Part shown: positions 7,117 to 34,294 of the stretch, in pieces
Layout of the letters: the number at the start of each line of letters is the position of its first letter
Position numbering within the stretch: the first letter of the stretch is position 1
Source: a virus
IMG/VR virus record: IMGVR_UViG_3300036772_000425
Span: 74,924-138,923 of that record
DNA length: 64,000 nt
Strand: one strand, 5' to 3'
Notes under the pieces: generated by a model
The model's database searches: none
Told to the model about the DNA's origin: nothing
The model's input: the letters and a program-made list of their open reading frames with translations, nothing else
Translations under genes and position numbers: made by a program

Positions 7117-8382
7117 TCAGGTCTCCTTTGAGGTGGAAGTCACCAACATGCAATCGATGATTACATCGAGTGACTTGTCGGACAGCTTCCCAGCATCGCA
7201 GGTCTGCCGAATCCAGGTCCGGACGTTGGGGCTTCGACCCTCCCAGATGTTGAAGTAGGGGGCACACCAGGTGCCGCTGGCGAGAACCAGCTCCGCGAAC
7301 CGCTTCCGGGAACCCTGAGCCTCCTTCCGAGCAGATTCGAACACCTCGTCAGCGTGGCGACAGTACTCCCGGTACTCGTCCTGCATCTTCAGGATGCGAT
7401 CTCCCACGTCCTTCGGGATCAGGGGCACGATGTCGTCAGCCTTCTCCAGGATCACAGCCATCAGAGCGTTGCGAGGCGAGGCCGTGACGCTGTCCTTCGA
7501 CCGATGCGCCAGAACGTACGCCTCGCTCTTCAGCTTGATCCTGCGGAAGTGAGAATCGCACACTACAGCACCTTCCAACTCGCTGGGACTGATCGAGTTG
7601 ACGAACGCCGCGAGCACAACAGCGCTGGAGATGGGCCATGATCGCGGACGACGAACGTGCTCCATTCGGATCGAATCGAGCGGTACCTCCTTGCCGCTCG
7701 GCAGGTGCCGCGCTGCGAGCAGGTAGGCACGAGGTTCAGGGTATGAAACCACGATCTGATTGTGGGGTGAGACAAGCTCGAAGACATAGGTCATCTCCTT
7801 GCTGAGATGCACCACCTTGTCCGGACCGTCGACAGACCAGTCCACCGGCTTCCCCGACAGTTCCTCACGGGTCATGATGAGAGCCTTGAGGAAGAGCTGC
7901 GAGAAGGTGGAATCTCCGATCACCAGGTCGTTCGGGTGGATGGGCAGGTCAGCCTCCGACACCGACCTGGTAGCACTGCACCAGGTGCCCTTCGTAGGAT
8001 CCCAGTAGACGATGATGCAGGTGCCGTCCACCTTCTCGTACACCCGGAGTTCAGGATCAGCCCAATCGACCTTCGCGGCTGAAAAATCGCCGTGGTTGTA
8101 GAACCTGCACATGGGCCAAGCCAGGACCTCGGTCCGACCGACAGGCACCAACTTCCAACCATCACGATCGGTGTGCCACACCGCAGAATCAGGTTCGGGA
8201 CGAATGACCAACCCACGACACTGCTCTGACAGCGGATCCCCGCTGCGTGACATGATCTGATCGTAGTTGCAGGAAAACTTGCTGAAATCAGAACTGGGTC
8301 GGGCGCACACTCCGTGCGCATCCTCGAGCTCCTTGAATGAGTGGGTTCGCAGGAATTCCTGGACAAGGAGGTTGGGTGCCAT
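7117..8382 (-). CDS. RNA ligase, Rnl1-like nucleotidyltransferase
   Basis: 421 aa; motif I EKVDGT near residue 118, as in T4 Rnl1-type ligases; sits in the tRNA/RNA-repair gene context. Confidence 0.55.
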   Translation of the reverse strand: MAPNLLVQEFLRTHSFKELEDAHGVCARPSSDFSKFSCNYDQIMSRSGDPLSEQCRGLVIRPEPDSAVWHTDRDGWKLVPVGRTEVLAWPMCRFYNHGDFSAAKVDWADPELRVYEKVDGTCIIVYWDPTKGTWCSATRSVSEADLPIHPNDLVIGDSTFSQLFLKALIMTREELSGKPVDWSVDGPDKVVHLSKEMTYVFELVSPHNQIVVSYPEPRAYLLAARHLPSGKEVPLDSIRMEHVRRPRSWPISSAVVLAAFVNSISPSELEGAVVCDSHFRRIKLKSEAYVLAHRSKDSVTASPRNALMAVILEKADDIVPLIPKDVGDRILKMQDEYREYCRHADEVFESARKEAQGSRKRFAELVLASGTWCAPYFNIWEGRSPNVRTWIRQTCDAGKLSDKSLDVIIDCMLVTSTSKET

Positions 8383-8419
8383 GCATGGCTTATACCTCCC
8401 TCCTTCCTAGACTACATCC

Positions 8420-8845
8420 TCAATCCTCAGCTTCGTTGTCCTTGAAGAGGCTCGGAAGGTCCAACCTTGCCTCTGCGTCGTCGATCGGCACCACTTCGAT
8501 GTCATTGTCAACGTACCTGCGCATCGGCAGCAACCCGCCTGAGACCCAACCGGTGTGCACCGTCACCGACAGCCCAGCCGAGTTCTTGGATTTCTGTGCA
8601 AGCCCCAACCTGATCAGATCGAGTCGTTTATGACGCTGGTTGTCCTCGTACGAGTACTCGAAACCGCGGAGCTCTGCTTCGATGAAATCACCCGGTTCGA
8701 GCAGGATCTCGTTCAGTTCAGGGATGACCGACTGCTCACCCTGTTCCATGGAGCACAGCCAGACGTACAGCGCTTCTGACGTGGGGAACAGGTACAGCTT
8801 CTTCCCATGGGAAGTGGGTCGTAGGGTGATCTTGACTTTTCGCAT
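8420..8845 (-). CDS. hypothetical protein
   Basis: 141-aa ORF in the minus-strand operon. Confidence 0.4.
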   Translation of the reverse strand: MRKVKITLRPTSHGKKLYLFPTSEALYVWLCSMEQGEQSVIPELNEILLEPGDFIEAELRGFEYSYEDNQRHKRLDLIRLGLAQKSKNSAGLSVTVHTGWVSGGLLPMRRYVDNDIEVVPIDDAEARLDLPSLFKDNEAED

Positions 8846-9195
8846 CAGTGGTACTCCGCACCGTCGTGCTTCTTGAGTTCGGTGACATGGTCATCCAGGC
8901 GCCGGATGTGTTCAGCGTTCGGAAGATCGAGCCAATCATCTTCCCGTGAGAGTTCTTGCGCTGTCAGACCCTTCGAGGCCTTGACGATGATCTCCGCGGC
9001 GTGTCGATCGCAGTACTGCACCGGCAATTTCGGATGAGAGATCGTCGCAGGCGATGAACACTCCATGCCGCACCTGGGAACAACTCCCATGATGATACGT
9101 GCATGATCGGAAGCTGCGTTGAGCAGAAGGTTGATCAACGTGGCATTTCGAAGGATGGCCTTCGCCATCAACCTGTTCTCATTGTCGTTGGTCAT
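8845..9195 (-). CDS. hypothetical protein
   Basis: 116-aa ORF; stop overlaps the next gene's start. Confidence 0.35.
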   Translation of the reverse strand: MTNDNENRLMAKAILRNATLINLLLNAASDHARIIMGVVPRCGMECSSPATISHPKLPVQYCDRHAAEIIVKASKGLTAQELSREDDWLDLPNAEHIRRLDDHVTELKKHDGAEYH

Positions 9196-9304
9196 CGAAT
9201 TTGTAGGTCCGTCCGGAGTTGCACCGGACTACGGAACTCTATAACAGCTCCTGGGTCGACTGGTCCCACGGACCCGGATCGACCCTGTATGTTCACGTCT
9301 ACCA

Positions 9305-10006
9305 TCACATCAACGATCGCAGGAGGTCCTTGTTGTCACCGCAATACGTATGTAGCTTGTCGAGCCAGACTCGAGACTTCTGCTTGAACATGATGGGCAT
9401 CTTTGTTCGTTTGTCGTTGGTTCCCTTGCACACCACGCCCTCGAATGTCATCCCAGGTAGTTGAGAACCCCTGACGCTCTCAATGAACTCTGGAGTACAT
9501 GGACCGTTGTACAGGACACGTGCATGGTCCATGTCACCGACGAGCCTGAGGTACCGGTCGGGTTCTAGGAGACCCTGGTTGAACGGTGCCACATCGAACA
9601 GCGTAACATCGAGCGTCTCGTTGAGGTCGTGCATGCCGGCGAACGATGAGGGCCCACAAAGTTCAAAGAAACACATGGCTCGCTGGTGACCCGCATCCTT
9701 CAGTGCTTTCGCAAGCGATTCTCCGTATTTGGTGGTCACCAGGTCGGGCGCGCGACCAAAGATGGGATCGGTTGCATCGACCAGTCGATGCCGAGTGCCG
9801 AACTTGTGCCAACCCTTCTTGCTGGTCCATTCTGCCCTGATGTTGCTGCCGTCCAGCTTGTCAAATGCCACGATCGGAACACGTGACTCTGTTGCGTACG
9901 AGATGCTGGGGTAAGTCTTCACAATGTTCTCCGGTTCATGGCGCTCATCTAGCTCGAAAGCGAGCTTCGGATCGCGTCGCCTGTGGTGTTCACGGATCAC
10001 GTCCAC
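9305..10006 (-). CDS. minimal ATP-dependent ligase (nucleotidyltransferase, KxDG...EGxVxK)
   Basis: 233 aa; motif I FDKLDGSN and motif V EGVVCK of covalent nucleotidyltransferase ligases. Confidence 0.55.
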   Translation of the reverse strand: MDVIREHHRRRDPKLAFELDERHEPENIVKTYPSISYATESRVPIVAFDKLDGSNIRAEWTSKKGWHKFGTRHRLVDATDPIFGRAPDLVTTKYGESLAKALKDAGHQRAMCFFELCGPSSFAGMHDLNETLDVTLFDVAPFNQGLLEPDRYLRLVGDMDHARVLYNGPCTPEFIESVRGSQLPGMTFEGVVCKGTNDKRTKMPIMFKQKSRVWLDKLHTYCGDNKDLLRSLM

Positions 10007-10563
10007 GTCTCCGAACTACCGATGTTCTCCCAGCTGCACAACCCGACAAGTTCATCGCGCCATTCGTCCACCTTCATGTCAGCGAGCGACCCCAACCTGG
10101 CTCGCCAGTTGGCCCGATCCCAACCGAAGGTGTCCCACACGTACGTCTCGAACCCAGTGAGCGGGTTCCCGTTCAGATCGTGCAACCACTCTCCGTGAAC
10201 TCTGTCGTTGAGATGCGCTGGAAGGTACTGAATTTTGCATGTTCCATCGTACAGCGGCCGGGTGCTCAGTTCATCGAGCAGTTCGACGAACGTGAGTTCC
10301 GGATGCACCATCAGATCATCAGCCAGCATGAATTCAGAGAACCCAGACAGGTCATGATCCTGGAAGCTGCCGTAGTACCCCACAACGTAATCGGGCGCCC
10401 GGCACCAAGCGTTCTGTGCCAACCAACCGTTCGTCTGGTCCTCTTGCCAGTCGGCCATCCCAGATTCAGTGAGTTGGTAGAAAGGTTGCAGTAGTTCGGA
10501 GACGCGTGGATACACGTCACGACATCGAACCGGCAACCAACAGACGCCGCCGTCAGCTCCCAT
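9997..10563 (-). CDS. hypothetical protein
   Basis: 188-aa ORF; 10-nt overlap with the downstream ligase gene suggests one operon. Confidence 0.4.
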   Translation of the reverse strand: MGADGGVCWLPVRCRDVYPRVSELLQPFYQLTESGMADWQEDQTNGWLAQNAWCRAPDYVVGYYGSFQDHDLSGFSEFMLADDLMVHPELTFVELLDELSTRPLYDGTCKIQYLPAHLNDRVHGEWLHDLNGNPLTGFETYVWDTFGWDRANWRARLGSLADMKVDEWRDELVGLCSWENIGSSETWT

Positions 10564-11001
10564 ATCGTACCAGCGGAGGGAGTCGAACCCTCAATCCCTT
10601 TCGGGCCCCCGATTTTGAGTCGGAGCTGTATTCCAGTTCCAAGCACGCTGGCATGCGTATTCTGCGCTCCTCAGTTCGAACCCTTGGCTCTCCGATCGTA
10701 CGTGTGTGACAATTCAACCCACAGTCGTGTTGGAGCTCGCACCCGATCATCTTCATCCGTGTCGATCGAGACGACAAGCACCAGCCCAAAGATCCTGAGA
10801 ACCCTGTTGATGGTGTTCAGCTGCATTTGAGTCCAACTCCCGCCCACGGTACGATAGTGCTTTCATCGATGACGATGGCACGTTTGCGGAAGTCCAGGAC
10901 CAGCTTTTCACCAGGTGATTCGAGTGTTCCTTCTCCGTTGAGGAACATTCGCTTCCGGTTGATCGCATCAACCTTCTCCTGGGTCAGCTTGCGTCGTTTC
11001 T

Positions 11002-11328
11002 TCATCCCAACCTCTTCGAGTCCTTTGTGGCCAGATCGTAGGATGATCCGATCAGGATGTACAGGTCGTTCGGAGAGAAACCCGGTACAGGTGTTCCGGT
11101 TGAGTGAAACACTTCCGCCATTTCATGGTGAACCGGGCACAGGCTGATGCCGTTGGAAGCTGCGTAGCCCCCATTCGGCATCAGGTTACGATCGGTGATG
11201 TGGTGAGCGTCCAGATCATCACGTTTGATGAAGCACACCCGACATGCGTTAGAATCACGCTTGAAAACAGCGTCCCTGAAGGCCTGCCGGATCCGCTTCT
11301 TCTCAGATGACATGGAGATGACTTCCAC
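11002..11328 (-). CDS. HNH endonuclease
   Basis: 108 aa; CRVC...DAHHI...N...LCPVHH, an HNH/His-Me finger pattern. Confidence 0.6.
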   Translation of the reverse strand: MEVISMSSEKKRIRQAFRDAVFKRDSNACRVCFIKRDDLDAHHITDRNLMPNGGYAASNGISLCPVHHEMAEVFHSTGTPVPGFSPNDLYILIGSSYDLATKDSKRLG

Positions 11329-11382
11329 CTGAGGCGGTGACGCCGCGCTTCAGCACGGCACCCCACCATTGGACGTTGAGGA

Positions 11383-11697
11383 TCATCGAACCCAGTGACC
11401 CCGCGCGAAGGCCCACCGACGGTGCACGTAGGTGTAGCGCGGGTGGATCCAACGGTACCCAGCGACGATGCGGACGTGGTACCCGGGTGACCAGACCCAA
11501 CGGTTCACAGACCAGCCCCAGTAACCACGTGACCAGATGTACCCGGGACGGACCACGAAGGTCTCCACGATGGGCGCAGGGGCCGCAACGTACTCGCACT
11601 CGGCGCTGTACACCTGCTCATCATCGGCCGAAGCATCCTTTGCAGGGAAGCAGGCAGAACACGCGATTGCAGCGGCAATGATCAGATTCTTCAGCAT
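11383..11697 (-). CDS. secreted protein with YxWGW/PGY repeats (signal peptide)
   Basis: Trimmed to internal ATG at 11697 (MLKNLIIAAAIACSA...); GGAGAGAG RBS; repeats RPGYIWSRGYWGW / WVWSPGYHV. Confidence 0.5.
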   Translation of the reverse strand: MLKNLIIAAAIACSACFPAKDASADDEQVYSAECEYVAAPAPIVETFVVRPGYIWSRGYWGWSVNRWVWSPGYHVRIVAGYRWIHPRYTYVHRRWAFARGHWVR

Positions 11698-11904
11698 TTT
11701 CTCTCTCCATACCTTGGGCGGGTGCCCAGGTGACATTGACATGAGGATGGTACTGCGTCCACGGTTGGGTGTTTCAGACCTTTTCTTCGTTGAAGTGTTA
11801 CGGTCTGTTACGGCAGTGTTACGGTCGGGTTGTAACACCCGGTGTAACACTTTACAGCACCATCACCCATGACATAGGTATCTACGATGTGGGAATTATG
11901 ACGG

Positions 11905-11976
11905 AGCAGTCCACGGGACTCGAACCCGTAACCCTCCGGTTGGGAACCGGGAGCGCTACCGTTGCGCCAGGACTGC
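11905..11976 (-). tRNA. tRNA-Gly(CCC)
   Basis: hand-folded cloverleaf: acceptor gcagtcc/ggactgc, T-arm acggg-actcgaa-cccgt, anticodon loop uucccaa. Confidence 0.7.
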
Positions 11977-12062
11977 AAATTCAAAAAGCGCTTTCACCTA
12001 CGGTCTCGGAGGTTCATGGGATCCCCACGATCTTACCGGACAGACAACGGTTACTGGCGCGG

Positions 12063-12134
12063 AGCGAGCGACGGGGTTCGAACCCGTGACAACCAGAATG
12101 GAAACCTGGTGTTCTACCACTGAACTACGCTCGC
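12063..12134 (-). tRNA. tRNA-Gly(UCC)
   Basis: cloverleaf: acceptor gcgagcg/cgctcgc, T-arm acggg-gttcgaa-cccgt, loop uuuccau. Confidence 0.65.
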
Positions 12135-12219
12135 AAAGCATGTTCACCTCCGGCTTGTCCGCTCCGCGACCCTGCGGTCGCATCACCGCCGACAAGCGCT
12201 TGGGTAGTTACTGATGCAG

Positions 12220-12291
12220 AGCAGGCGGCGGGATTCGAACCCGCGATTTCCTCCATGGCAAGGAGGTGCGATACCACTTCGCTACGCCTGC
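12220..12291 (-). tRNA. tRNA-Gly(GCC)
   Basis: cloverleaf: acceptor gcaggcg/cgcctgc, T-arm gcggg-attcgaa-cccgc, loop uugccau. Confidence 0.7.
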
Positions 12292-12314
12292 ATCATTTTT
12301 TGGTGTTGAGTCTG

Positions 12315-12399
12315 CGGTAGGGAGAGGATTCGAACCTCCGGGTCCTTGCGGACCACCGACTTTCCAGATCGGGCACTTAAACCGCTCGTGCACCCTTCC
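12315..12399 (-). tRNA. tRNA-Ser(GGA)-like, class II
   Basis: 85 nt with long variable arm; anticodon loop cuggaaa; acceptor has one mismatch. Confidence 0.5.
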
Positions 12400-12610
12400 G
12401 TTCATTTCATAGTTGGCGCGCCAGTTCGTACTGCTCCTGCTTCAGGATCTGAACTGCCGCCTCACCGATGTGACATGTGCTGCCTTCATTTTCCTCTGCC
12501 TCGCGCAGCATCGCCTTGATCCTCACCGCCCGTTCCCGAAGTTCCCGACCTGGGTTCGGTCGTTGGCTCAGGATCACATCATCCTTCATGCACAGGTAGC
12601 ACATTTCTTC

Positions 12611-12697
12611 GCGGAAGCGGCAGGATTCGAACCTGCGGGACCCTTTCGGGTCCGCCTGTTTTCGAGACAGGTGTCTTCAACCGCTCGACCACGCTTC
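12611..12697 (-). tRNA. tRNA-Ser(CGA), class II
   Basis: acceptor ggaagcg/cgcttcc; T-arm gcagg-attcgaa-cctgc; variable arm gggaccctttcgggtcc; loop cucgaaa. Confidence 0.7.
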
Positions 12698-12987
12698 CGT
12701 TCTCTCACCAGATCCTGTTCGGATCCCGTCCGATCAGACTGGACCACGACTGACCTACCGACATCATACCAACCGAACTTCCCGCAAACCCAGGGATCCT
12801 CGATCCCATGTAGGTCCCACAGACCGTGAAGGTGCACTTCGCACCGCATCCTGAGCAAACGTGCTCATAGACACCCGGGCTGTAGAACATGTGACTGGGA
12901 GGACTGTGATCCGGGCTCATGCACGGTCGATGACGACGCTCCCAATCGGGATCGGAGATCTTACGGGTCGGCATATTCAATCCTTTG

Positions 12988-13074
12988 CAGAGGAGGAGGG
13001 ATTCGAACCCCCGGATCCCTTTCAGGATCGCCTGTTTTCAAGACAGGAGCCATCAACCGCTCGGCCACCCCTCT
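12988..13074 (-). tRNA. tRNA-Ser(UGA), class II
   Basis: 87 nt; long variable arm; anticodon stem cctgt/acagg with loop cuugaaa. Confidence 0.7.
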
Positions 13075-13150
13075 ATGCTTTCTCAATTATGGGGTGCGAT
13101 GCGATGCTGTTCACCCCATACCTTCCCACCCGTAATTTTCTGGTGGGTCG

Positions 13151-13237
13151 CGGAAGCGGCAGGATTCGAACCTGCGGGACCCTTTCGGGTCCTTCCGGTT
13201 AGCAACCGGACGCCATAGGCCTCTCGGCCACGCTTCC
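13151..13237 (-). tRNA. tRNA-Ser(GCU), class II
   Basis: 87 nt; acceptor ggaagcg/cgcttcc; loop uugcuaa; long variable arm. Confidence 0.7.
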
Positions 13238-13584
13238 AAGATCTTCTACCTCATCAGGAGCCGGATCGACGACCTGATCCTCTGACTCATCGTCAGGTGG
13301 GTCTCCCGTGTCCCTGTAGTACGGGTCGCATACGTTTGGGACCCAAACTGAGCTTTCCGTTCCGTCAACCTCGACGGTCTGCACCGTTCCACCCTCACAA
13401 CCTGTCGGTCCTTCTTCGGGCGACCACAACAGGTCACCGTGTTCATGATGAACCAACGACGGTCCTTCATGCCCTGGAACCCGCGTGGCACCAGCAGAGC
13501 AACCCACCAACATGACCATCGTAGGGAACATGTACCGAAGCATGCTGGAACATACACCACGCGCTCCATGTTTCTACAAGGTCT

Positions 13585-13656
13585 GTCAGCGCAGTGGGAT
13601 TCGAACCCACGACATCCACTTCGTAAGGGTGGCGTCCTGCCTCTGGACGATGCGCT
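13585..13656 (-). tRNA. tRNA-Val(UAC)
   Basis: acceptor cagcgca/tgcgctg; T-arm gtggg-attcgaa-cccac; loop cuuacga. Confidence 0.7.
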
Positions 13657-13669
13657 GGCTGTTGTTGTT

Positions 13670-14065
13670 TCAGAGCAGGCGGAGCGTGCTGGTGATCGGA
13701 TCGATCTCCTCGGCGAGGCACGGTCCGAACGCGGCGCACGTTAGGGTTGGGACTCCGTGGAATTCAGTCCTCCCTGCGTCGACGATCGGGTAGACCTCCA
13801 CGTCTGCAAGTTTGGCACGGAGGATCAGCTGCTGCAGTTCCTCCTCGCTGTCGCACCCAGCAACGATCTTCGTGAAGGATCCGGAGAAGAGCCAGGTTGC
13901 CTCCTCGCGTGACAACTTCACCATGAGCTCATCGTCCCGATCCGCCTCATTGTTGTCGACCAGGAATTTCATGGCAGCGTGGGCGACCTGCGAGGCCAGC
14001 TTTCCCTTCCTCATGTTCAGGTCGCGACGGACGACGATAACCTGCTTGACATCGCTCATGATCAT
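13670..14065 (-). CDS. peptidyl-tRNA hydrolase, PTH2 family
   Basis: Trimmed to ATG at 14065 (MIMSDVKQVIVVRRDLNMRKGKLASQVAHAA...TLRLL); GGAGGT RBS 5 nt upstream; the longer ORF would overlap two tRNAs. Confidence 0.75.
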   Translation of the reverse strand: MIMSDVKQVIVVRRDLNMRKGKLASQVAHAAMKFLVDNNEADRDDELMVKLSREEATWLFSGSFTKIVAGCDSEEELQQLILRAKLADVEVYPIVDAGRTEFHGVPTLTCAAFGPCLAEEIDPITSTLRLL

Positions 14066-14085
14066 TACCTCCAAGGGCGATGCTG

Positions 14086-14157
14086 TGTCCCGCGTTGGGT
14101 TCGAACCAACGAGCTCCACCGTGTGAGGGTGGCGATCTACCGCTGATCTAGCGGGAC
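14086..14157 (-). tRNA. tRNA-Val(CAC)
   Basis: acceptor gtcccgc/gcgggac; T-arm gttgg-gttcgaa-ccaac; loop cucacac. Confidence 0.7.
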
Positions 14158-14192
14158 ATCGGGAGACATCCATCTGCCTCCCGTAGGTAGGA

Positions 14193-14462
14193 TCAGCGTG
14201 CCCGATTCTTGGGTTTGACGATCACTGCCGGCCTCATCTCCTCGATGAGGCCCTTGAGGTGAGCGCGCTGGCGCGCAGCACCAACACCCACCCCCAATCG
14301 AGCGTCCAGAGCAGCGAGCTGCTGTTCCGGGTTCAACCCTCGCCAGGCCACGAGACGTTCGGCGGCCTCCGTTTGCTTGATGGAGGTCTTGTCAGGGCGC
14401 GGACCGCCCTCGCTGTAGCGACGGCCCGAGCTCGACTTACGACCCATCTTCGGCATTTCCAT
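14193..14462 (-). CDS. hypothetical basic protein
   Basis: 89-aa ORF. Confidence 0.35.
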   Translation of the reverse strand: MEMPKMGRKSSSGRRYSEGGPRPDKTSIKQTEAAERLVAWRGLNPEQQLAALDARLGVGVGAARQRAHLKGLIEEMRPAVIVKPKNRAR

Positions 14463-14506
14463 GGTGTTTATGGCCTCTGCTCCCGTGGGAGCTTCACAGG
14501 TTCAAA

Positions 14507-15115
14507 TCACCAGTGATGATCGGGACACGATCCGGAACCGCACCCGCCATCACCGGTACCGCAGTTGCTTGTAAGACAATCGCATGTCTCCTTGCACACC
14601 TCGACGCATTGCAGGTACACGTGGCAGGTGCTTACGTGATCCTTCCCATCGGTGTGTTGGCATGCCGTGTAGCATCCGTCCACACATTCCTCGTGGTCAA
14701 CATACCCATCGCACGTCAACCCTCCGCAGACAGTGCCGCCTCCTGATCCGCTCGACCCTGCGGACGATGTCGAGGTCGTTGAACCGTCAGACGCCGAGCT
14801 TGAGACGTTCGATCCACCTGAACCGGTGACAGTTGGGTTCGACCCACCGGCAGCCCCTGCACCTGATACCGTCGTTGAGCTGGTGACATCGCACCCACCA
14901 TGGCCACCCGCACCAACGGAGGACGTGCTAGATGGGCTGGAAACGCTCGATCCTTGCCCGCCGGCGCCGCCGGAACCACCGGCGCCACCGGTGCCAGTCC
15001 AGGGCGGGCAATCACAACCACCCGTTCCCGATGATTCTGGGAATTCGACCAACTGCGATCCACCGCACGCAGCGAGGACCAGCGCGCTCAGGGCGCACAG
15101 TTTCGTGAACTTCAC
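14507..15115 (-). CDS. putative lipoprotein, Cys- and Gly/Ser/Thr-rich
   Basis: N-terminus MKFTKLCALSALVLAACGGS reads as a lipoprotein signal with lipobox; multiple Cys pairs. Confidence 0.5.
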   Translation of the reverse strand: MKFTKLCALSALVLAACGGSQLVEFPESSGTGGCDCPPWTGTGGAGGSGGAGGQGSSVSSPSSTSSVGAGGHGGCDVTSSTTVSGAGAAGGSNPTVTGSGGSNVSSSASDGSTTSTSSAGSSGSGGGTVCGGLTCDGYVDHEECVDGCYTACQHTDGKDHVSTCHVYLQCVEVCKETCDCLTSNCGTGDGGCGSGSCPDHHW

Positions 15116-16131
15116 TTCGAACCTTCTTTCCTGATGACGAACCTGACGTTGAACTCGACCCTGCGGTTCTCGACCCTACCCGCCTTCTTCCCGTTGTCAG
15201 CGATGGGGCGTGAGTAGCTGAACCCACGAGCTGTCATCCGGTCCGCGGGCAGGCCGGCCGCCTTCAGGCAGTCCAGCACCGCCTGAGCACGCTTCTCAGA
15301 GAGCCGCAGGTTGTGCGGTTCCGGAGGGCCATCGTTGGAGGCATGGCCTTCAACCACCAGCGACCAACCCTTGTGGGCCTTGAGAACATCGATCACGTGT
15401 GCGATGTGCGGCACGGCCGCGGGCAGGATCACCGCTGAATCAGGGCCGAATTGCACCTTCTCGTTCAGCTCGAAGGTCTCCGGTTCCACCACCCGCACGA
15501 CGGGTGCCGGCAGCTCCCTGGGCGGAAGGATGGGTTCGATCAGGGCGGGTTCACGCACTGCCTTCAGGGGTGAGGGTCCGATCTCCAGGCTGAGGCCGAA
15601 GATCAGAACGTGAGCGTCGCTGCCGTCGATCCCAGCTCGAGAGACCTGAGCGATGTCAAGGTACCTGACGTAGGGTCCGAACCACACGTTCCTCCGCTCG
15701 TTGAGCGGCACCGAGGCGCCGAGCGCTGTCGTCAGGGCAACCCGATCGAGCGGTCCGGTACGAGCGTACTGGACGCTGCCGTCGATCCAAGGAGAGACTG
15801 CGGTCAGGCCCGTCCCTGTGTTCGATTCATCATGAGGTCGCTTGAACCTGACAACGGGACCGACAGACCACATCGATCCTGCGTTGATGCCCTGGATCTG
15901 CGATGGCAGCGACAGGAACGATCCGAACGCTCCGACGTCGAAGAACGGCACGACCCCGATCAACGGCTTGAGCGCCAGGGTACCGCCGGTGTCGAACCTG
16001 TCGGTCTGCGGCGTCGCCAACGGAACAGCCACCCCACCTTCGACGGTCAGGGTCGGTGGGTCAGCCGCAAACGCAGCGACAGGCAGCAGGAACGCCGCCA
16101 TCAGGCTCAGGCTTGTCAGGGATGCTTTCAT
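15112..16131 (-). CDS. OmpA-family protein (signal peptide + OmpA C-terminal peptidoglycan-binding domain)
   Basis: Signal MKASLTSLSLMAAFLLPVAAFA; C-terminal NLRLSEKRAQAVLDCL...RVEFNV matches the OmpA_C pattern. Confidence 0.65.
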   Translation of the reverse strand: MKASLTSLSLMAAFLLPVAAFAADPPTLTVEGGVAVPLATPQTDRFDTGGTLALKPLIGVVPFFDVGAFGSFLSLPSQIQGINAGSMWSVGPVVRFKRPHDESNTGTGLTAVSPWIDGSVQYARTGPLDRVALTTALGASVPLNERRNVWFGPYVRYLDIAQVSRAGIDGSDAHVLIFGLSLEIGPSPLKAVREPALIEPILPPRELPAPVVRVVEPETFELNEKVQFGPDSAVILPAAVPHIAHVIDVLKAHKGWSLVVEGHASNDGPPEPHNLRLSEKRAQAVLDCLKAAGLPADRMTARGFSYSRPIADNGKKAGRVENRRVEFNVRFVIRKEGSK

Positions 16132-16208
16132 GTGTTGTGTTTCTCCCGGGATCCAACGGATCCGCGAGGTGAATCCTACAACACACGGTGCACCGTAAAC
16201 CTCACCAG

Positions 16209-16285
16209 CACCCCCGGCAGGGTTCGAACCTGCATGTGTCCGGTTACGGTTCCCACTGCTTAGAAGGCAGAGCCGATACGGAGGT
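16209..16285 (-). ncRNA. tRNA-like element (Arg-type acceptor and T-arm; anticodon arm not foldable)
   Basis: acceptor acccccg/cggaggt and T-arm gcagg-gttcgaa-cctgc nearly identical to tRNA-Arg(ACG) at 17688, but no canonical D or anticodon arm. Confidence 0.35.
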
Positions 16286-16424
16286 GTGACCTGGGTGTGA
16301 GCCTGCTTTCACCTTCCTGGTTCCGCCCAAGGCGGGTGCAACCCACCGCAGGGATTTTCACCCTTATGACAGTTACTCACCGTCAGGGACGCCCACCTCA
16401 CGATGGCTCCGTCCTGACGACCCG

Positions 16425-16498: not shown

Positions 16499-16512
16499 AT
16501 TTCAACACTGAG

Positions 16513-24910: not shown

Positions 24911-24942
24911 CCTAAGTATTCTCCACAGTCTCCACCTCGGTT

Positions 24943-24958: not shown

Positions 24959-25053
24959 GATCGAACCTAGCCGCACAAGTCGCTTACATCCGGTATTCCG
25001 TAAGAGAGGCGACGACCCAAGGAGCGCAGAAATCTGTGTTACATCTTCATTCG

Positions 25054-25125
25054 TTGGCACCGAGGGACTCGAACCCTCGACATCCGCGGTGTGGGCGCGG
25101 CGCTCTGCCTCTGAGCTAGGTGCCA
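25054..25125 (-). tRNA. tRNA-Val(CAC)-like (C33 in my fold)
   Basis: acceptor tggcacc/ggtgcca; T-arm gaggg-actcgaa-ccctc; anticodon stem ccgcg/cgcgg; loop cccacac. Confidence 0.55.
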
Positions 25126-25142
25126 GTGACTCTTCTCTACGG

Positions 25143-25217
25143 TCGGGGCGACAGGATTCGAACCTGCGACCTCGTGCGCCCAAGGCACGCGCTCTAGCCA
25201 GGCTGAGCTACACCCCG
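25143..25217 (-). tRNA. tRNA-Pro(UGG)
   Basis: acceptor with one G-U; anticodon stem cgugc/gcacg; loop cuugggc (U33, G37); D-arm gctc-tagccaggct-gagc. Confidence 0.7.
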
Positions 25218-25401
25218 TTCTGCTTCTCTTTGCCGGCTGTTTCTTTCCGGCTTGCCACTTTCAACCCCCTGGGGGATGTGGCGTGCGAAACGGCAGCACG
25301 CTCAAGGTGGACGTAAGGCATCCGACGCCGAAGCGCCGTTCCTCTGTCCTGCCTGTCTGCATGCTCAACATCATTTGATGACTCGTTTCGACCTGACTGC
25401 G

Positions 25402-25473
25402 TGATCCCTACGGGACTTGAACCCGTGTCATCACGCTGAGAACGTGATGTCCTAGCCGCTAGACGAAGGGACC
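25402..25473 (-). tRNA. tRNA-Glu(CUC)
   Basis: T-arm acggg-acttgaa-cccgt; anticodon stem tcacg/cguga; loop uucucag. Confidence 0.7.
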
Positions 25474-26390: not shown

Positions 26391-27788
26391 TCAGCGCCAG
26401 GCTTCCGCCATGGGCCGATCCTTCGACAGGAAGATCTGGGTCTCGGGCATCTCGAAGGCCAGCTTACAGCCTTGGCCCAGGACCCAACCCCGCTTGATGC
26501 GGCTGGGGACCGGTGAACCAGCCTGTCCATCGGTCATGATGAGCATGCCGTCCCACCGCCCACGGTTCTTCGGATCATTGACGAAGTTGGTGGGTGCGTT
26601 GAAGTCCGTACCGCCACCTCGCATCCTCTGGAGCTTGGGCCGCATGCCGCGCTTCCACTCGTAGACATCATTCTCACCGCAACCGCAGTCGAAGTGAATC
26701 AGTGTGATGTCGACGCGACGGGTCAGCGAATCGAGCTCGGCGAAGAACATCTCCAGCATGCTGTCGTCCACCGAACCCGATTCATCGATGGCGACAATCA
26801 GCTTGGCGTTGTAGCCGCGCTTGGTCCCTGGGTGGATGTACGGGTACCGCTTGTTGATCCGTTTGATGGTGGTGACCCGTTGTCCACGCACGAGGCTGCC
26901 GACGAACTGACGGAGCACAGTACGCCAGTCGACCACCGTTGACACCGAGCGCCTGATCTCATCCCGAAGTTCGGCGGGGATGTTGCCCCATCCGTCGGCG
27001 CGCTCGTCGGCGTGCCTGACTGCCTTCTCGACCAGTGCCCGGATCCTTCCTGCCACGTACTCTCGAGCCTCCTCCGGAAGACCATCATCCCAACCGCTAT
27101 GGTCATCGAGCGCGACCAGGATGGGATCCTGCCCCTCTCCGGGGTACTTGTCAGGGTTTTTCTTGCGATCCTCCTGAAGCTGCTGGAAGTACCACTCCGA
27201 CGCCTTCTCGGTCGGCATCTTTTCGATCAGGTCGGAGAAGTGCTCGATCGCCTTCTTGCGCTCGGGGGTCAATGCCTCGAACCGGGCGGGATCGACCCAG
27301 GGTCGGGTGCCGGGCACCAGGGCAATTTTGGGCAACGGACCGGTGGGCACGCCGTGGTCCAGGTCACGCGAGTTGCCGTGGTTCTTCACGATCATAGAGT
27401 TGATCGCGAGGTCGGTGGCGATGTTCCAGTCGTCCGCCGGATCATGGCGTCGAACGTTCAGGTGCCCGAAGACCAGGTGGTTGAACTCGTGGGTCAGGAC
27501 CCCTCGGGTCTCCCAGTTGGTCAGCCCGGTCTCCTTGATGATGACATCCTTACCGTTTCGGTCCTTGCGAACGTACTCGCCGCCGCCCATGAAGGCAGGG
27601 TTGACCCACATGATGAGCTCATCAGCCTTCGGATCGAAGGCGACCGCCGCGGTCGGAACGTCGTAGGTGAAGTGCTTGTGAATGTGGCGCGACATTTCTG
27701 CGTAGAAGGGCACGTCCTGCATGAACGGGATCAGGTGACGGCTCAGGTTGTAACTGTGTTCGATCGAGCTCCAGCGCATGCTCACCAT
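26391..27788 (-). CDS. VWA-domain protein with N-terminal HExxH metallopeptidase-like domain (DUF2201-like), a typical MoxR partner
   Basis: 465 aa; HEFNHLVFGH; C-terminal VAIDESGSVDD (MIDAS DxSxS). Confidence 0.65.
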   Translation of the reverse strand: MVSMRWSSIEHSYNLSRHLIPFMQDVPFYAEMSRHIHKHFTYDVPTAAVAFDPKADELIMWVNPAFMGGGEYVRKDRNGKDVIIKETGLTNWETRGVLTHEFNHLVFGHLNVRRHDPADDWNIATDLAINSMIVKNHGNSRDLDHGVPTGPLPKIALVPGTRPWVDPARFEALTPERKKAIEHFSDLIEKMPTEKASEWYFQQLQEDRKKNPDKYPGEGQDPILVALDDHSGWDDGLPEEAREYVAGRIRALVEKAVRHADERADGWGNIPAELRDEIRRSVSTVVDWRTVLRQFVGSLVRGQRVTTIKRINKRYPYIHPGTKRGYNAKLIVAIDESGSVDDSMLEMFFAELDSLTRRVDITLIHFDCGCGENDVYEWKRGMRPKLQRMRGGGTDFNAPTNFVNDPKNRGRWDGMLIMTDGQAGSPVPSRIKRGWVLGQGCKLAFEMPETQIFLSKDRPMAEAWR

Positions 27789-28926: not shown

Positions 28927-29793
28927 TCATGCAACCGGTGTCACGGCCATGACCCTTTTCTTGAAGAGCCGTGCAGCCAACGATCCGATGGCGCGTCGAG
29001 CGTCCTTGGAATCGATGAACTCACCGGCACCCTCACGCTGCACGTCCTCCAACATGGCCGCGATCACCTTGGGCGTGTCCTTGATGTCCACGTTACCGAG
29101 CTTGTCCAGGACGTGCTCCAACCGGGTCGGCGTGACCCACTCCGCGGCGATGGCCTCAGCGTCCTCAAGGACCTTGAGCTTCGCCGGGTCGCCCACCTCC
29201 CTCACCGTCCTGGTCTCGCGCTCCTCAGCACGCTTGTGCTTGAAGATGAAGCGTTCTCCGTTGGCATCGTAGATCTCTTGCAGGGCTCGGAGAACGACGC
29301 CCTCCCGGGGTTGATCGCCTTCAACTCCGTTGCGGCGTGCCTGCTCGGACGGCGCGTCCCGTTCAGCGTCCAGCGCGGCGATCTCCACCGGAACACGTCG
29401 GTAGTGCACGAACTCGAGACCCAACCTCTGGGCGACCTGGTCAGCATCGGGCACGCTGAGCCAGCGATCGCCCACCTTGACCTCGAAGGCGATGAACTTC
29501 AACTGCTTCCCGTACCGCCAGGACTGTCCCTGTTGCTTTCCACCGTAGGCCTCACCGAAGACGATGATCTCCGGGTGACCGATGGTCTCGAAGGCGACCT
29601 TCAAGGCATCGAGGTCAAAGATCTTGATGAAGCTCGCAAGCGACTCGCCGCCGGCGAAGAGATGCACCTCCCCGTCCTTCCAGGACACGTGCGCGGAGGT
29701 GCCGTGAATCTTCTCCGATGCGTAGCACTCCCTGAGCAGAAAGAAACACTGCGCTTCAGGACGATAAAGGTTCGTCGTGTGCCTGTACCCCAT
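28927..29793 (-). CDS. RNA ligase, Rnl2-like
   Basis: 288 aa; motif I EKIHGTSA matches the Rnl2 K-I-H-G-T signature. Confidence 0.65.
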   Translation of the reverse strand: MGYRHTTNLYRPEAQCFFLLRECYASEKIHGTSAHVSWKDGEVHLFAGGESLASFIKIFDLDALKVAFETIGHPEIIVFGEAYGGKQQGQSWRYGKQLKFIAFEVKVGDRWLSVPDADQVAQRLGLEFVHYRRVPVEIAALDAERDAPSEQARRNGVEGDQPREGVVLRALQEIYDANGERFIFKHKRAEERETRTVREVGDPAKLKVLEDAEAIAAEWVTPTRLEHVLDKLGNVDIKDTPKVIAAMLEDVQREGAGEFIDSKDARRAIGSLAARLFKKRVMAVTPVA

Positions 29794-31330: not shown

Positions 31331-32000
31331 CCGGACCTCGTTTCATGGTGGCGAACGCGATAGCGTCCTTCCAGCCCGTCTCATCGCCCGGGAACCGGGC
31401 ACATGGGCTGGGTGCCACCTTCTTGATGGCGCCTTGCAACGGTCCGCGGAAGTGCGGGTCGATGGTGCGCCAGAAGAAGGCATCCTTCAGCGAAATACCG
31501 CTGTAGACCATCACCTTGGTGCCCTCGTAGGCGCACTTGGCACAGTTCGGGTACCTGACACGCAGGACCAGGAAGGTACCCACCTCGTGCACCGTAAGGA
31601 CCTCGTAGTTCTGGGAGTCAGGGCTCGTTTGCACCATGGACTCAAGCTGCCTGATCTTCGACTGGAGGTCGTTGACGGTCTTGCGGCGCTTCTTCTCTTC
31701 TGACTCATTCTCGAGCTCGTACTGCCGGGCCTGCAGGTTCGAAGGGTGATGGCTGCAGTTGAGATCGTTCGGACCGTGCCTACATGTCATGGTGCTCCTG
31801 GAATTCGGGATCCATCTCGTCGTAACCACCGTTCGGATCTTCGATCCAATCGTTGGGTTCCATGCGGTCAGATCGTTCAGGGTGCGACACCTGCCTGGGT
31901 TTCCTGTTCGGGACCCCGCCACGAGGTGGCCGAGCACGTTGGACGACCCTCCACAGGCCGCCGGTGCAGACGCATGTTCCCGGTGGATGCAATCCATCAC
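31323..32000 (-). CDS. hypothetical protein (start uncertain)
   Basis: 225-aa ORF. Confidence 0.3.
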   Translation of the reverse strand: MMDCIHREHASAPAACGGSSNVLGHLVAGSRTGNPGRCRTLNDLTAWNPTIGSKIRTVVTTRWIPNSRSTMTCRHGPNDLNCSHHPSNLQARQYELENESEEKKRRKTVNDLQSKIRQLESMVQTSPDSQNYEVLTVHEVGTFLVLRVRYPNCAKCAYEGTKVMVYSGISLKDAFFWRTIDPHFRGPLQGAIKKVAPSPCARFPGDETGWKDAIAFATMKRGPGA

Positions 32001-32348
32001 GGTCCCAACGCTTCGATCGCCAGCAGCAAACGCACTCGAGCAGGTACAGCATCAATCGTTGTCCCAGCTCATGCCACAGGCACTGCAGGTGTACTGGCTC
32101 CTGCCCGGATGAGCGCAGAAGGTGCGGATCGTTCTGATCAGTTCCTGTGTCATCCGAACATCAGCGTTCAGGCCTGCCAGGTGCTTCTGCAGCATCGTGA
32201 ACGTGGGTTTGATCTGTTCCTGCTCCAGCGGGAACGTAACGTTCGGAACGCTCATGACGGGATCCCATCCCTCCAGGCGACGTATGCCTTTGAGAAAACT
32301 ATGTTTTTCATACTTCGTTTACAATGGGTTCCCCTACAGTACAAATTC

Positions 32349-32939
32349 ATGATGAAACCCAAAGAAGATCTAGAAATGTTGCTGGCTGAAGCTGAAGACA
32401 TGTACGTCAACCAGATGATGCCAATCAAGGCTGTTGTCAAGAAGTTTCGGGATGAAGGACGTTCCATCACGCTCTGGCGCCTATGTGACAGACTTCATAA
32501 CAAAAACCTCACTCGAACCCCAACACAGACCCTCATTTACCAACGATTGATCGGTAAAGTTTCCAACACCTGTGTCATCAACGGTTGTTCGAACCAGTGC
32601 ATGGGAAGACGAAAGTATTGCCGAACATGCATTCCTGATGGTACCGCTCACATCACCTACTTGCGCCACGGACTTACACATCCTCAAATCGATGCGATGC
32701 TAGCATCGCAAGGTGGTGTATGCGCTGGGTGTTTACAGCTCATGTGTCGTGGTGGAAGGGCTAAAGCTAAAAGTCAGTGTGTTGATCACGATCACATCAC
32801 TGGTGATATCAGGGGGATCTTATGTCGTGGCTGTAACACGACCCTAGGTTCGGCAAAAGATTCCGCAGCAACGCTTCGTAGACTTGCTGCATACCTTGAT
32901 GTTCACTCAGTGATACAAACGACATCGATGCAATCCTAA
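32349..32939 (+). CDS. endonuclease VII-like (T4 gp49 family) junction-resolving nuclease
   Basis: Trimmed to ATG 32349 (MMKPKED...); C-terminal CAGC...VDHDHITGDIRGILCRGCN is the Endonuclease_7 signature; the only plus-strand gene in this region. Confidence 0.6.
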   Translation: MMKPKEDLEMLLAEAEDMYVNQMMPIKAVVKKFRDEGRSITLWRLCDRLHNKNLTRTPTQTLIYQRLIGKVSNTCVINGCSNQCMGRRKYCRTCIPDGTAHITYLRHGLTHPQIDAMLASQGGVCAGCLQLMCRGGRAKAKSQCVDHDHITGDIRGILCRGCNTTLGSAKDSAATLRRLAAYLDVHSVIQTTSMQS

Positions 32940-32944
32940 TGCAT

Positions 32945-34294
32945 CTACTTGTTGAGGGCTACCCATCGTTCGTACGCTACGAGTACTGACTGATCTACAT
33001 CAGCTTCATCACGAAGTCGACAATAGACAGGGAAACGCATTTTGCCCTCGTTCGTCAACCCGTCCTTGGTCAGGGGATCGGGTTGGGCCTCGCACTCCAC
33101 GATCTTCCCGACCCAGGCATCGGGAGTGTCGAGCTGCACCTGCGTGCGCAGGGCGTCGTTGAACCCTCCACCGACACGGGTGATGACACCGTTGGGCAGC
33201 AGGACCTCGAACCCACCGAAAAGCCCTTCACGTTTGGTCCCGCGGCGACCCTCGTACCATCCGACGATGGTGCCTTCGTAGGTCACACACGGTTTCAACT
33301 TCAGGATGTTCTTGGAACGGTCCCACTCGTAGGTGGTGGCAAGCGTCTTCAGCATCACCCCTTCGTAACCCTCGTCCATGCACCTGGCGAAGAAATCCTT
33401 GAGCTCCTCCTCGTTCGTGGCCATGATGTGTGGGACCTGTCGAACATGCTTGTCGTTCGCTGCACCGAGCACCCGCTCCACGAGGTCGCAGCGTTCCCGG
33501 TAGGTGAGCAGGGTGGCCTGCGCGACCCAATCGGCGACAGGCATCGCATCGAAGACGTTGTAGAAGATGTTGGAATCGTCCTTCTTCGTCTTCGACGACA
33601 TCAGGACGCTGGCCGACTCGTTCCAGTCCTCCCCCATCGCCTCCCCGTCGAGAGCGATGTCGTCGATGGCCATGGTCTCGAGCACCGCCCTGATCTTCGG
33701 CAAGGTTTCCAGAACTGTCCCGTTGCGGGTGTAGAAGGTGACCTCTCCTGACTTCTTGACTGCGATGCATCGCAGGCCGTCCAGCTTGGGTTCGACCCTA
33801 ACGGGGTAGCTCACGCTCTCCATGATCCGGATGCCGGTTCCCCGTTCGAACTCGCTCTTCAGTGTGCAAGCAAGGGCGACGCTGAAGCCCTTGATGAGGT
33901 CGGGCCAGACCTTGTTGACTGTGGTGACCTGCACCCCACACCTGAGGTTCCTGAGCAGGATGCGCTGGCACCACTTCTGCTCCAACGCAGTCATCATCCC
34001 GAAGCATGATTCCACCGCGCGCTTGGCCTCGTTGCCCGTCAGCTCGCGAGTTGCCAGGCGATCGTGGATCAGATCCAGGAAACATCGCACCCGGTCATCC
34101 CCGGTCACCACGCCCTGTACGGCGGGAGGCATCTTGAACTTGTTGACGTAGTACACGGTGTACGGATCGAACGCAGAGATGAAGACCCTCTGCAGTAGCT
34201 CGTTGGACCGAGCGACCTGCAGGATGTCCTTCTTGGCGTTGCTGCCCTGGGTGGATTCGAGCTCCTCCAGGAGGGTGATCACATGACGTTCCAT
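32945..34294 (-). CDS. ATP-dependent DNA ligase
   Basis: 449 aa; motif I VEPKLDGLRCIA (KxDGxR); later EGVMLK. Confidence 0.7.
   Translation of the reverse strand: MERHVITLLEELESTQGSNAKKDILQVARSNELLQRVFISAFDPYTVYYVNKFKMPPAVQGVVTGDDRVRCFLDLIHDRLATRELTGNEAKRAVESCFGMMTALEQKWCQRILLRNLRCGVQVTTVNKVWPDLIKGFSVALACTLKSEFERGTGIRIMESVSYPVRVEPKLDGLRCIAVKKSGEVTFYTRNGTVLETLPKIRAVLETMAIDDIALDGEAMGEDWNESASVLMSSKTKKDDSNIFYNVFDAMPVADWVAQATLLTYRERCDLVERVLGAANDKHVRQVPHIMATNEEELKDFFARCMDEGYEGVMLKTLATTYEWDRSKNILKLKPCVTYEGTIVGWYEGRRGTKREGLFGGFEVLLPNGVITRVGGGFNDALRTQVQLDTPDAWVGKIVECEAQPDPLTKDGLTNEGKMRFPVYCRLRDEADVDQSVLVAYERWVALNK

Follow-up and report, generated by a model that had tools for sequence, protein, structure and literature searches.

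The closest described counterpart of the locus reported here is the jumbo-phage repertoire surveyed by Iyer, Anantharaman, Krishnan, Burroughs & Aravind (2021, Viruses 13:63; PMC7824862), in which tRNA arrays accompany several Rnl1 and Rnl2 ligases, PTH2, CCA/HD-type enzymes, NADAR and YAcAr SLOG domains, and HNH domains linked to Rnl2-family ligases. The model put forward for these phages assigns provision to the tRNAs, repair to the ligases and ribosome clearing to PTH2. Sets of three ligases are on record, with three Rnl2 paralogues in XacN1 and RtcB, Rnl1 and Rnl2 together in BcepSaruman, and the multiple ligases of jumbo phages are argued to be specialised and non-redundant, each facing different RNase effectors (PMC7824862). 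The same elements recur in a 64,000-nucleotide stretch of viral DNA, positions 74,924 to 138,923 of IMG/VR record IMGVR_UViG_3300036772_000425 (hereafter the window), and our analysis centres on its interval 7117-34294. The combination of tRNA supply with RNA repair is already published for jumbo phages (PMC7824862), and since the pattern has been both described and interpreted, the value of the ligases found here is mainly confirmatory. Two features set the locus apart from the published repertoire. An RNase P RNA, which lies outside that repertoire, is present among the tRNAs, and an Rnl1-like ligase is joined in one compact block, in this clade, by two uncharacterised proteins and a ligase that consists of a nucleotidyltransferase (NTase) domain alone.

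Two further systems bear comparison. In T4, Pnkp and Rnl1 repair PrrC-cleaved tRNA-Lys; the window likewise encodes a phage Rnl1-family ligase with all catalytic motifs, but this protein is ~25% identical to T4-like Rnl1 and falls under the T4 RnlA equivalog threshold, and no Pnkp homologue is found in the window. The bacterial Pnkp-Hen1 system occurs as ORF197/198 of XacN1 (PMC5852040), a tRNA-rich jumbo phage that also carries a homologue of the NTase-only ligase, whereas neither Pnkp nor Hen1 is matched in the window or in the related loci fetched.

The window is part of the genome of a huge phage, at least 340 kb in size, because proteins identical to those of its open reading frames (ORFs) occur on a 340,433-bp Joint Genome Institute (JGI) contig; identical copies are also found in Logan assemblies of SRR11832861. 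No near-identical DNA is present among 50,697 phage records, and the protein relatives belong to huge metagenomic phages (LR745206, LR745208, LR756502, LR756508 and LR756511), to the Xanthomonas jumbo phage XacN1 and to Lak megaphages. The GC content of the window is ~58-60%, and nearly all genes with a coding-type GC content at third codon positions (GC3) lie on the minus strand from 7117 onward. All 56 tRNA genes found by ARAGORN are on that strand and represent all 20 amino acids, and one extra tRNA (16604-16673) is found by Rfam only, which bears out the giant tRNA array described in an earlier note on this DNA. ARAGORN reads four-base anticodons, caat and agaa, in two tRNA-like genes (44505-44581 and 45531-45602, minus) that score 46 and 40 bits with the Rfam tRNA model; these may have odd anticodon loops or be frameshift-suppressor-like tRNAs. 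On one strand, the island gathers 36 tRNAs, the RNase P RNA, PTH2, a short RF1-like release factor, the NAD/ADP-ribose-related NADAR and YAcAr SLOG proteins and three RNA ligases (Table 1).

Table 1. Features of the window, in order of position (aa, amino acids)
Feature	Position	Strand	Length	Basis or remark
Rnl1-like ATP-dependent RNA ligase	7117-8382	minus	421 aa	Pfam, PHROG, PDB, motifs
ORF8420, conserved protein between the two ligases	8420-8845	minus	141 aa	beta-rich, acidic C-terminal tail
ORF8845, conserved protein	8845-9195	minus	116 aa	end overlaps ORF8420 start by one base
RNA-ligase-family enzyme, NTase domain alone	9305-10006	minus	233 aa (conserved core ~205 aa)	motifs, fold
ORF9997	9997-10563	minus	188 aa	overlaps start of NTase-only ligase; coding-like GC3 0.68
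First tRNA block	10567-25473	minus		35 ARAGORN tRNAs and 1 Rfam-only
ORF11002, stand-alone HNH domain	11002-11328	minus	108 aa	upstream of NTase-only ligase
PTH2-type peptidyl-tRNA hydrolase	13670-14173	minus		PF01981 97 bits; NF003314 86 bits
NADAR-domain protein	16721-17194	minus		PF08719 94.8 bits; conserved in related loci
YAcAr-type SLOG-domain protein	17191-17805	minus		PF10686 44 bits; called as 164 aa in locus L043
Short RF1-like release factor	18148-18771	minus	207 aa	domain 1 absent, GGQ kept
HCX5R(S) cysteine-phosphatase-fold protein	18820-19281	minus	153 aa	motif HCDAGLSRS
Bacterial type-A RNase P RNA	20591-20938	minus		Rfam RF00010 255.3 bits (gathering 100), full model 1-367
Rnl2-like ATP-dependent RNA ligase	28927-29793	minus	288 aa	NTase and probable C-terminal domain
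ATP-dependent DNA ligase	32945-34294	minus	449 aa	KLDG
Second tRNA block	41034-46022	minus		ARAGORN
Deoxynucleoside monophosphate (dNMP) kinase	46533-47279	minus		PF21448 36 bits, phrog_139 89 bits; outside interval
HD-domain protein, C-terminal half of a CCA-adding enzyme	53302-54258	minus		outside interval

The RNase P RNA, not the ligases, is the most unusual feature of the interval. Its core sequences are all present: GAGGAAAGUC, ACAGAAAACAGACC, GGUAAGAGC, AGAUGAAUG and ACAGAAC...GCUUA. On its 5' side the RNA directly abuts tRNA-Leu(cag) (20939-21023), and its 3' end lies 4 nt before tRNA-Arg(tcg) (20512-20586). With tRNAs within 0-5 nt of the RNase P RNA, ordinary tRNA processing would release the ribozyme. 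A 79% identical copy is found in the same context in a related locus (L005 1741-2094, 224 bits), and a further copy lies at L100 8369-8710. A P4-motif search of IMG/VR, followed by nhmmer and ARAGORN, adds at least 13 contigs, 74-497 kb long, on which an RNase P RNA is embedded in a dense array of tRNAs. Among 10 phage copies, compensatory changes are seen at 48 of the 75 predicted pairs, so that phage lineages evidently maintain this structure by selection. In two of these loci, on contigs of ~94-102 kb, a transfer-messenger RNA (tmRNA) stands at the edge of the tRNA array that holds the RNase P RNA (L080 4076-4409 and L102 7997-8330), and the encoded tags are ANDNATAFGLAA and ANDNATAYGLAA.

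No rnpA was seen in the window. In the searchable literature, targeted searches included, we met with no account of an RNase P RNA encoded by a phage. It goes unmentioned in the huge-phage paper PMC7162821, in the jumbo-phage comparative paper and in a 2026 review, and the Rfam results of a study on two megaphages comprise tRNAs and tmRNA only. Among curated phage records, blastn with the RNase P RNA gives few weak matches. The one inspected, in Microcystis phage MaAM05, was set aside as evidence for a cultured carrier, the matching region having a bacterial look (fabI, engB, mtgA).

The NTase-only ligase carries the motifs KLDGSN, FFE, EGVVCK and MFKQKS. Its PF09414 score of 26.3 bits is 0.7 bit short of the cut-off of 27, many of its homologues carry a precomputed PF09414 match, and it matches phrog_548 with 37 bits. 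The family counts 1087 metagenomic homologues. Across 26 sequences K49, D51, G52, E114, E188, G189, K207 and K209, which belong to motifs I, III, IV and V, are invariant, and the family-wide invariant stretches are K-L-D-G-S-N, F-F-E, E-G and F-K-x-K. An AlphaFold2 model built from the homologue alignment (mean predicted local distance difference test score 84.8) adopts the ligase NTase fold, and Foldseek matches this model to ligase NTase domains alone, with probability 1.00. The best matches are T4 Rnl2, Naegleria NgrRnl, archaeal Rnl3 and T4 Rnl1, with template-modelling scores of ~0.5-0.55 and 14-18% identity. The flanking C-terminal domain or N-terminal OB domain of Rnl1-Rnl5 is absent from the model, which has two short terminal helices only; the first 30 residues are disordered in the model and missing from the 205-aa homologues. 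As modelled, the protein is a member of the RNA-ligase superfamily without the domains that define Rnl1-Rnl5. By comparison, the isolated NTase domain of T4 Rnl2 is defective in the RNA-adenylylation step. The RNA ligase families, which are defined by their domains, are all considered descendants of an NTase domain that once stood alone (PMC4408790). The ~205-aa core without a flanking module resembles the ancestral domain postulated by Ho et al. 2004 (cited in PMC4408790), with the difference that the NTase-only family is living and, with its 1087 proteins, widespread in huge phages; its activity is predicted.

Homologues of the NTase-only ligase are found in 20 of the 50,697 phage records, in huge or jumbo phages only (XacN1, Lak and the LR74/LR75 genomes). 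The XacN1 homologue, ORF354, is 41% identical and has NAD-synthetase, GatB-like and structural genes as neighbours. Ligases of this type were probably counted as Rnl2 paralogues by Iyer et al. Another XacN1 protein, ORF260 (L110 45606-46256), is annotated as '2'-5' RNA ligase' and carries KMDGEN, a motif typical of ATP-dependent ligases, which makes a further NTase-type RNA ligase probable; in locus L014 a homologue of ORF260 (39% identity) lies 4 kb from the NTase-only ligase.

The NTase-only and Rnl1-like ligases are separated by ORF8845 and ORF8420. ORF8845 has no Pfam or PHROG match, and its homologues, 31-40% identical, keep the same position in related loci. The genes of this left block follow closely on one another: neighbours overlap by 1 or 10 nt or stand 37 or 109 nt apart. 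No terminator-like site is found in 6800-11900, and the arrangement fits one transcript. ORF9997 has no family match in Pfam or PHROG and no homologue in any related locus, and it is therefore ruled out as a conserved ligase partner. The HNH gene ORF11002 is syntenic and 59-67% identical in eight related loci. Its normal GC3 (0.65) and fixed position distinguish it from the low-GC3 HNH genes at 21031-21606 and 23139-23585. It matches several HNH phrogs, Pfam HNH_2 weakly, and positions 5-63, at the N-terminus, of phrog_24030, annotated 'RNA ligase' (E 1e-11); the last match fits the HNH-Rnl2 fusions noted in PMC7824862. The HNH protein, ORF8845 and ORF8420 are candidate trans partners of the NTase-only ligase.

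In distant huge phages of 447-480 kb the NTase-only ligase gene stands last in a run of another composition (L040 6993-10618; L041/L042 7796-10615; L044 4252-4605), preceded by a weak 2H-family match, a His_Phos_1 gene, an HNH gene and a Cys-rich 200-aa protein. The stop of the Cys-rich protein gene overlaps the ligase start by 4 nt, in a translationally coupled arrangement. The 2H and His_Phos_1 neighbours support an RNA-end-repair context for the NTase-only family, and the run is, to judge by its genes, a candidate heal-and-seal cassette that appears undescribed; the Cys-rich protein, His_Phos_1 and 2H enzymes are likewise candidate partners of the ligase in these phages. No homologue of the three is found in the window. 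A homologue of the Cys-rich protein lies ~5 kb from the Rnl2-like gene in a contig related to LR745208. In L040 a polysaccharide pyruvyl transferase and glycosyltransferase pair adjoins the NTase-only ligase, and a pair of the same type is present in the window.

The Rnl1-like protein scores 33.7 bits with PF09511 (RNA_lig_T4_1; cut-off 28.3), 131.8 bits with phrog_562 over residues 44-383, and 61.5 bits with the T4 RnlA equivalog model TIGR02308, below its threshold of 242. In phmmer it matches the T4 Rnl1 PDB structures with E 1e-6 and the motifs in register: I, KVDGT/KEDGS; III, FELVSP/FEFVAP; IV, EGAVV/EGYVA; and V, KLKS/KIKS, the T4 form given second. Rnl1 owes its tRNA specificity to a C-terminal helical domain; for the window protein, coverage ends at position 350 of 377 in phrog_562 and at T4 residue 300, which leaves the final ~40 residues unmatched. 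Orthologues of 50-63% identity occupy the same position in twelve related loci.

The Rnl2-like protein shares with the T4 Rnl2 family its NTase motifs (EKIHGTS, EGVVLR and FKHKR), and its C-terminal region can be aligned, if weakly, to the C-domain of T4 Rnl2. It matches PF09414 with 54.4 bits (cut-off 27) and phrog_548 with 88.9 bits over residues 3-279, and phmmer aligns its residues 163-261 with T4 Rnl2 204-304, from motif IV into the C-domain (E 0.003). It differs from T4 Rnl2 in being shorter (288 aa against a 335-residue PDB chain), in its weak match to T4_Rnl2_C (17.2 bits, cut-off 27) and in its TIGR02307 score of 38 bits, under the equivalog cut-off. An orthologue of 65% identity is present in LR745208, and the gene is syntenic in four related contigs. 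The fourth ligase matches phrog_114 with 344.8 bits, DNA_ligase_A_M with 73.6 bits together with A_N and OB_2, and PRK09125 with 91.9 bits, and is by these matches a replication and repair enzyme outside the RNA pathway. Compared pairwise, the four ligases have no significant BLAST similarity (best E 0.009), and they are therefore different tools rather than recent duplicates.

These results uphold in part what the earlier note had read in the interval. Profile, motif and, for the NTase-only protein, fold evidence assign its three KxDG/KxHG proteins to RNA-ligase families; none goes to a DNA-ligase or capping family, the outcome that by the note's own terms would have refuted it. The DNA ligase and PTH2 are present as it had said. 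Its description of the set as much expanded and redundant does not hold, as the RNA ligases come from three different families and three-ligase sets are documented in jumbo phages (PMC7824862). We are confident, from sequence comparison, in the ligase identity of the RNA-ligase proteins.

Gene order was compared across IMG/VR contigs that carry an NTase-only ligase sharing 64-77% identity with the window copy. The recurring order is PTH2, tRNAs, HNH (ORF11002), NTase-only ligase, ORF8845, ORF8420 and Rnl1-like ligase, and the part from HNH to Rnl1-like is kept in ~12 independent contigs at 50-77% protein identity. In related contigs the Rnl1-like gene meets a convergent block whose first gene encodes a giant Laminin_G protein. 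A second order, AAA_5, DNA ligase, small ORFs, Rnl2-like ligase and DUF2201/VWA, is kept in 4 contigs. Beyond the clade the order is lost, so that the clustering of three ligases is a conserved feature of one clade and no universal operon. The genes that flank the segment of the Rnl2-like and DNA ligases, a DUF2201 protein with metallopeptidase-like and VWA domains (26391-27788) and an AAA_5 (MoxR-like) ATPase (35690-37030), both minus, are conserved in the clade and likely form a MoxR-VWA pair.

We lean towards reading the interval as the core of a translation-maintenance island, in which spare tRNAs and resealing keep translation going under attack by host RNases. This reading is built on the families to which the proteins are assigned, on catalytic motifs that are intact, on the conserved sequences and gene order, and on the orientation shared with the tRNAs; from these observations we infer the substrates, the counter-defence purpose and the source of 3'-OH/5'-phosphate ends. 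Host ribonuclease defences or toxins would cut tRNAs or other structured RNAs, and the phage would supply its own tRNAs and reseal the breaks, so that translation continues. Broken stem-loops, for example anticodon loops, would be the substrates of the Rnl1-like enzyme, and nicked duplex regions those of the Rnl2-like enzyme; both proposals follow the classification of the Shuman laboratory, in which breaks in loops fall to Rnl1 and Rnl4 and nicks in duplexes to Rnl2 (PMC4408790). The NTase-only enzyme would probably work with a nucleic-acid-binding partner in trans, and PTH2 would free peptidyl-tRNA from jammed ribosomes. The counter-defence in two layers, replacement plus repair, that the earlier note had proposed remains plausible with the ligases co-oriented with the tRNAs and PTH2, while its healing half finds no support.

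That missing half counts against the reading, as do other points. Anticodon nucleases leave 2',3'-cyclic-phosphate/5'-OH ends, on which ATP-dependent ligases need a kinase and a phosphoesterase, and jumbo phages that encode the ligases generally encode healing enzymes (Pnk-HAD, 2H, cRec) as well (PMC7824862), whereas none is present in this window. Essentially every plausible ORF of the window was scanned with Pfam, and many with PHROGs and NCBIfam, and these 64 kb of a genome of at least 340 kb contain no recognisable Pnk, HAD, 2H, calcineurin-type/metallophosphoesterase, RtcB, Tpt1 or Hen1. Searched with tblastn, the Pnkp, Hen1 and kinase of XacN1 find no counterpart in the window or the related loci fetched, and the sole six-frame match to the Walker-A pattern GxxxxGK[ST] lies in a plus-strand frame inside a glycosyltransferase gene. 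The end-healing set of the earlier note thus lacks an RNA-repair kinase or phosphoesterase in the 64 kb, and the ligases, as seen, could not act on ends of this kind. In LR745208 a distance of 107 kb separates the homologue of the Rnl2-like ligase from that of the NTase-only ligase, and the phage of the window has been linked to neither a host nor an anticodon nuclease. We know of no established biological role for Rnl2, even in T4.

Three genes that the earlier note had counted with the repair enzymes are present but have other or more distant connections. The CX5R phosphatase has the motif (HCDAGLSRS), a weak DSPc match (18.5 bits, cut-off 33.5) and a match to phrog_5614, of unknown function; among its 134 homologues, some of them in Myxococcota genomes, the sole name is an automatic JGI label, 'predicted protein tyrosine phosphatase'. 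The genes conserved beside it encode an S24-like peptidase and the RF1-like factor, with no ligase among them, and a tie to RNA ends or to a repair pathway is unsupported. The HD phosphoesterase is of the CCA type, as claimed (HD 31.7 bits; TIGR02692, the actinobacterial CCA enzyme, positions 209-414 of 466, 145.7 bits), but lacks the NTase head. Neither it nor the dNMP kinase is in the interval, both lying 12-20 kb past its end, and the HD gene is 19-45 kb from the three RNA ligases. A Pol-beta head for the HD protein, by frameshift or from an upstream ORF, was ruled out, the upstream frames being L7/L12-like and GNAT. HD-like phosphatases occur in a few jumbo phages (PMC7824862), and the HD protein is by analogy a possible, if distant, healing candidate. 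The dNMP kinase belongs, by its matches, to nucleotide metabolism; it was rejected as a polynucleotide kinase on its phrog_139 (dNMP kinase) match over residues 1-213. For the CCA enzyme of E. coli, Yakunin et al. reportedly found in 2004 that its HD domain has cyclic-phosphodiesterase and phosphatase activity. An ABC1-like ORF (42585-43331) was rejected as an RNA kinase, having a weak protein-kinase-like motif only. Next to the HD gene, a 156-aa protein with an L7/L12 C-terminal domain (54465-54935, minus; 63.7 bits) adjoins a GNAT acetyltransferase (54960-55742, minus). RimL acetylates L12, and the two neighbours recall it. Near 54 kb the GC content climbs from ~0.62 to ~0.70.

The ligases might instead belong to housekeeping and form, with the RNase P RNA, PTH2 and the RF1-like factor, a self-contained system of tRNA and translation upkeep where they mend routine processing or degradation damage or circularise or join phage RNAs, with or without nuclease attack. 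The place of the RNase P RNA between tRNAs, and its conserved and covarying structure, suggest that the phage invests in tRNA biogenesis; no defence or anti-defence gene is recognised beside the ligases, and huge phages encode many translation steps (PMC7162821). However, no known phage tRNA maturation step requires an ATP-dependent ligase, none of the tRNAs that ARAGORN lists here is split or has an intron, and T4 Rnl1, the sole phage ligase of this type that is understood physiologically, acts in counter-defence (PMC7824862); we regard pure upkeep as unlikely. A co-location without any shared pathway is improbable. It would draw on the tendency of huge-phage tRNA regions to gather auxiliary and mobile genes, and the interval does hold OmpA-domain, DUF2201/VWA, S24-like peptidase, cytidylyltransferase, low-GC3 HNH and EndoVII-domain genes; the ligases are scattered in LR745208 and XacN1, and the DNA ligase and dNMP kinase are clearly of other pathways. 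Against this, the HNH-to-Rnl1-like block is compact, co-oriented and kept as a unit in ~12 contigs, and two RNA ligases just two small genes apart are unlikely to have met by chance when homologues of one of them occur in so few of the phage records.

That the Rnl1-like protein serves mainly in virion assembly, as T4 gp63 does in tail-fibre attachment, would be compatible with ligase activity and is suggested by the annotation of phrog_562, 'RNA ligase and tail fiber protein attachment catalyst'. In every related contig, moreover, the gene is convergent with one for a giant Laminin_G_3 protein and three ~400-aa paralogues, maybe fibre or receptor-binding proteins. Yet these plus-strand neighbours match no tail PHROG and were therefore dropped as tail fibres, and the Rnl1-like protein keeps all ligase catalytic residues. 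To our knowledge, the assembly role of gp63 is established for T4-like fibres only, which counts further against this role, and we hold it to be highly improbable. PrfH and RtcB2 form a bacterial pair for ribosome rescue and repair, and a short release factor next to an RNA ligase could be its counterpart, rescuing ribosomes with cleaved 16S rRNA before religation. Domain 1 is absent from the RF1-like protein, whose 207 aa bring it close to PrfH in size, and in three related loci a homologue of it lies within ~2 kb of the NTase-only ligase. Its family nevertheless retains GGQ and the stop-codon PxT in 19 of 20 members, as a stop-codon reader would rather than a damage sensor; it is far nearer RF1 (E 5e-40, residues 33-206 against RF1 structures) than PrfH (E 3e-12); and most loci with this factor, eleven of them, have no such ligase within 10 kb. 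With PxT kept and the association sporadic, we rejected a PrfH-RtcB2-like pair and give it almost no credence.

Beside the view that spare tRNAs and resealing sustain translation under attack, we advance with more reserve a further proposal. The interval may be a self-contained unit of tRNA production and maintenance with its own RNase P ribozyme, as also in at least a dozen other lineages, and the ~205-aa ligase may represent a living stand-alone NTase family that uses trans partners.

Other genes of the island fill in its translation-related content. The PTH2 ORF overlaps a tRNA-Val at its 5' end, so that the true start lies further downstream, probably at ~14059, which gives 129 aa, the length called for a homologue in L043. 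The 5' end of the YAcAr ORF overlaps a tRNA-Arg, and the longest cytidylyltransferase ORF (20017-20634, minus) runs into the RNase P RNA; their true starts are likewise downstream, and automatic gene calls on the Logan contig partly share the overlong-start error. The RF1-like protein scores 97.6 bits with RF-1, together with the end of PCRF, 176 bits with prfA, below cut-off, and 82 bits with prfH (cut-off 167). Its codon-reading tripeptide is PPN in the window copy and PPT or PAT in homologues. Short RF1-derived proteins of this family (~180-220 aa), without domain 1 and part of domain 2, occur in 20 loci. A sigma-70-family factor with regions 2 and 3 is encoded at 38575-39477 (minus), and a cluster at 46116-51194 (minus) holds cupin/mannose-6-phosphate-isomerase-like, GT4 glycosyltransferase and polysaccharide pyruvyl transferase genes. 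HNH, C2H2-HNH and EndoVII-domain genes are found at 21031-21606 and 23139-23585 (minus), 31746-32939 (plus), 44825-45418, 47312-47803 and 48417-48884. GC3 is 0.36-0.37 in the first two, HNH genes whose homologues stand at varying positions in related loci, and 0.48 in the EndoVII-domain gene, against ~0.7 in neighbours; these low-GC3 HNH/EndoVII-type genes look like mobile homing endonucleases that colonise tRNA arrays.

The local absence of healing enzymes raises the question of the source of ligatable ends. The NTase-only ligase belongs to a large family that is almost specific to huge phages, and the two uncharacterised proteins of the compact, conserved two-ligase block are good candidates for RNA-repair accessory factors. 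The parts that deserve follow-up are this block and the RNase P RNA. If the latter proves phage-encoded and active, the translation-related functions captured by phages would extend to catalytic RNA.

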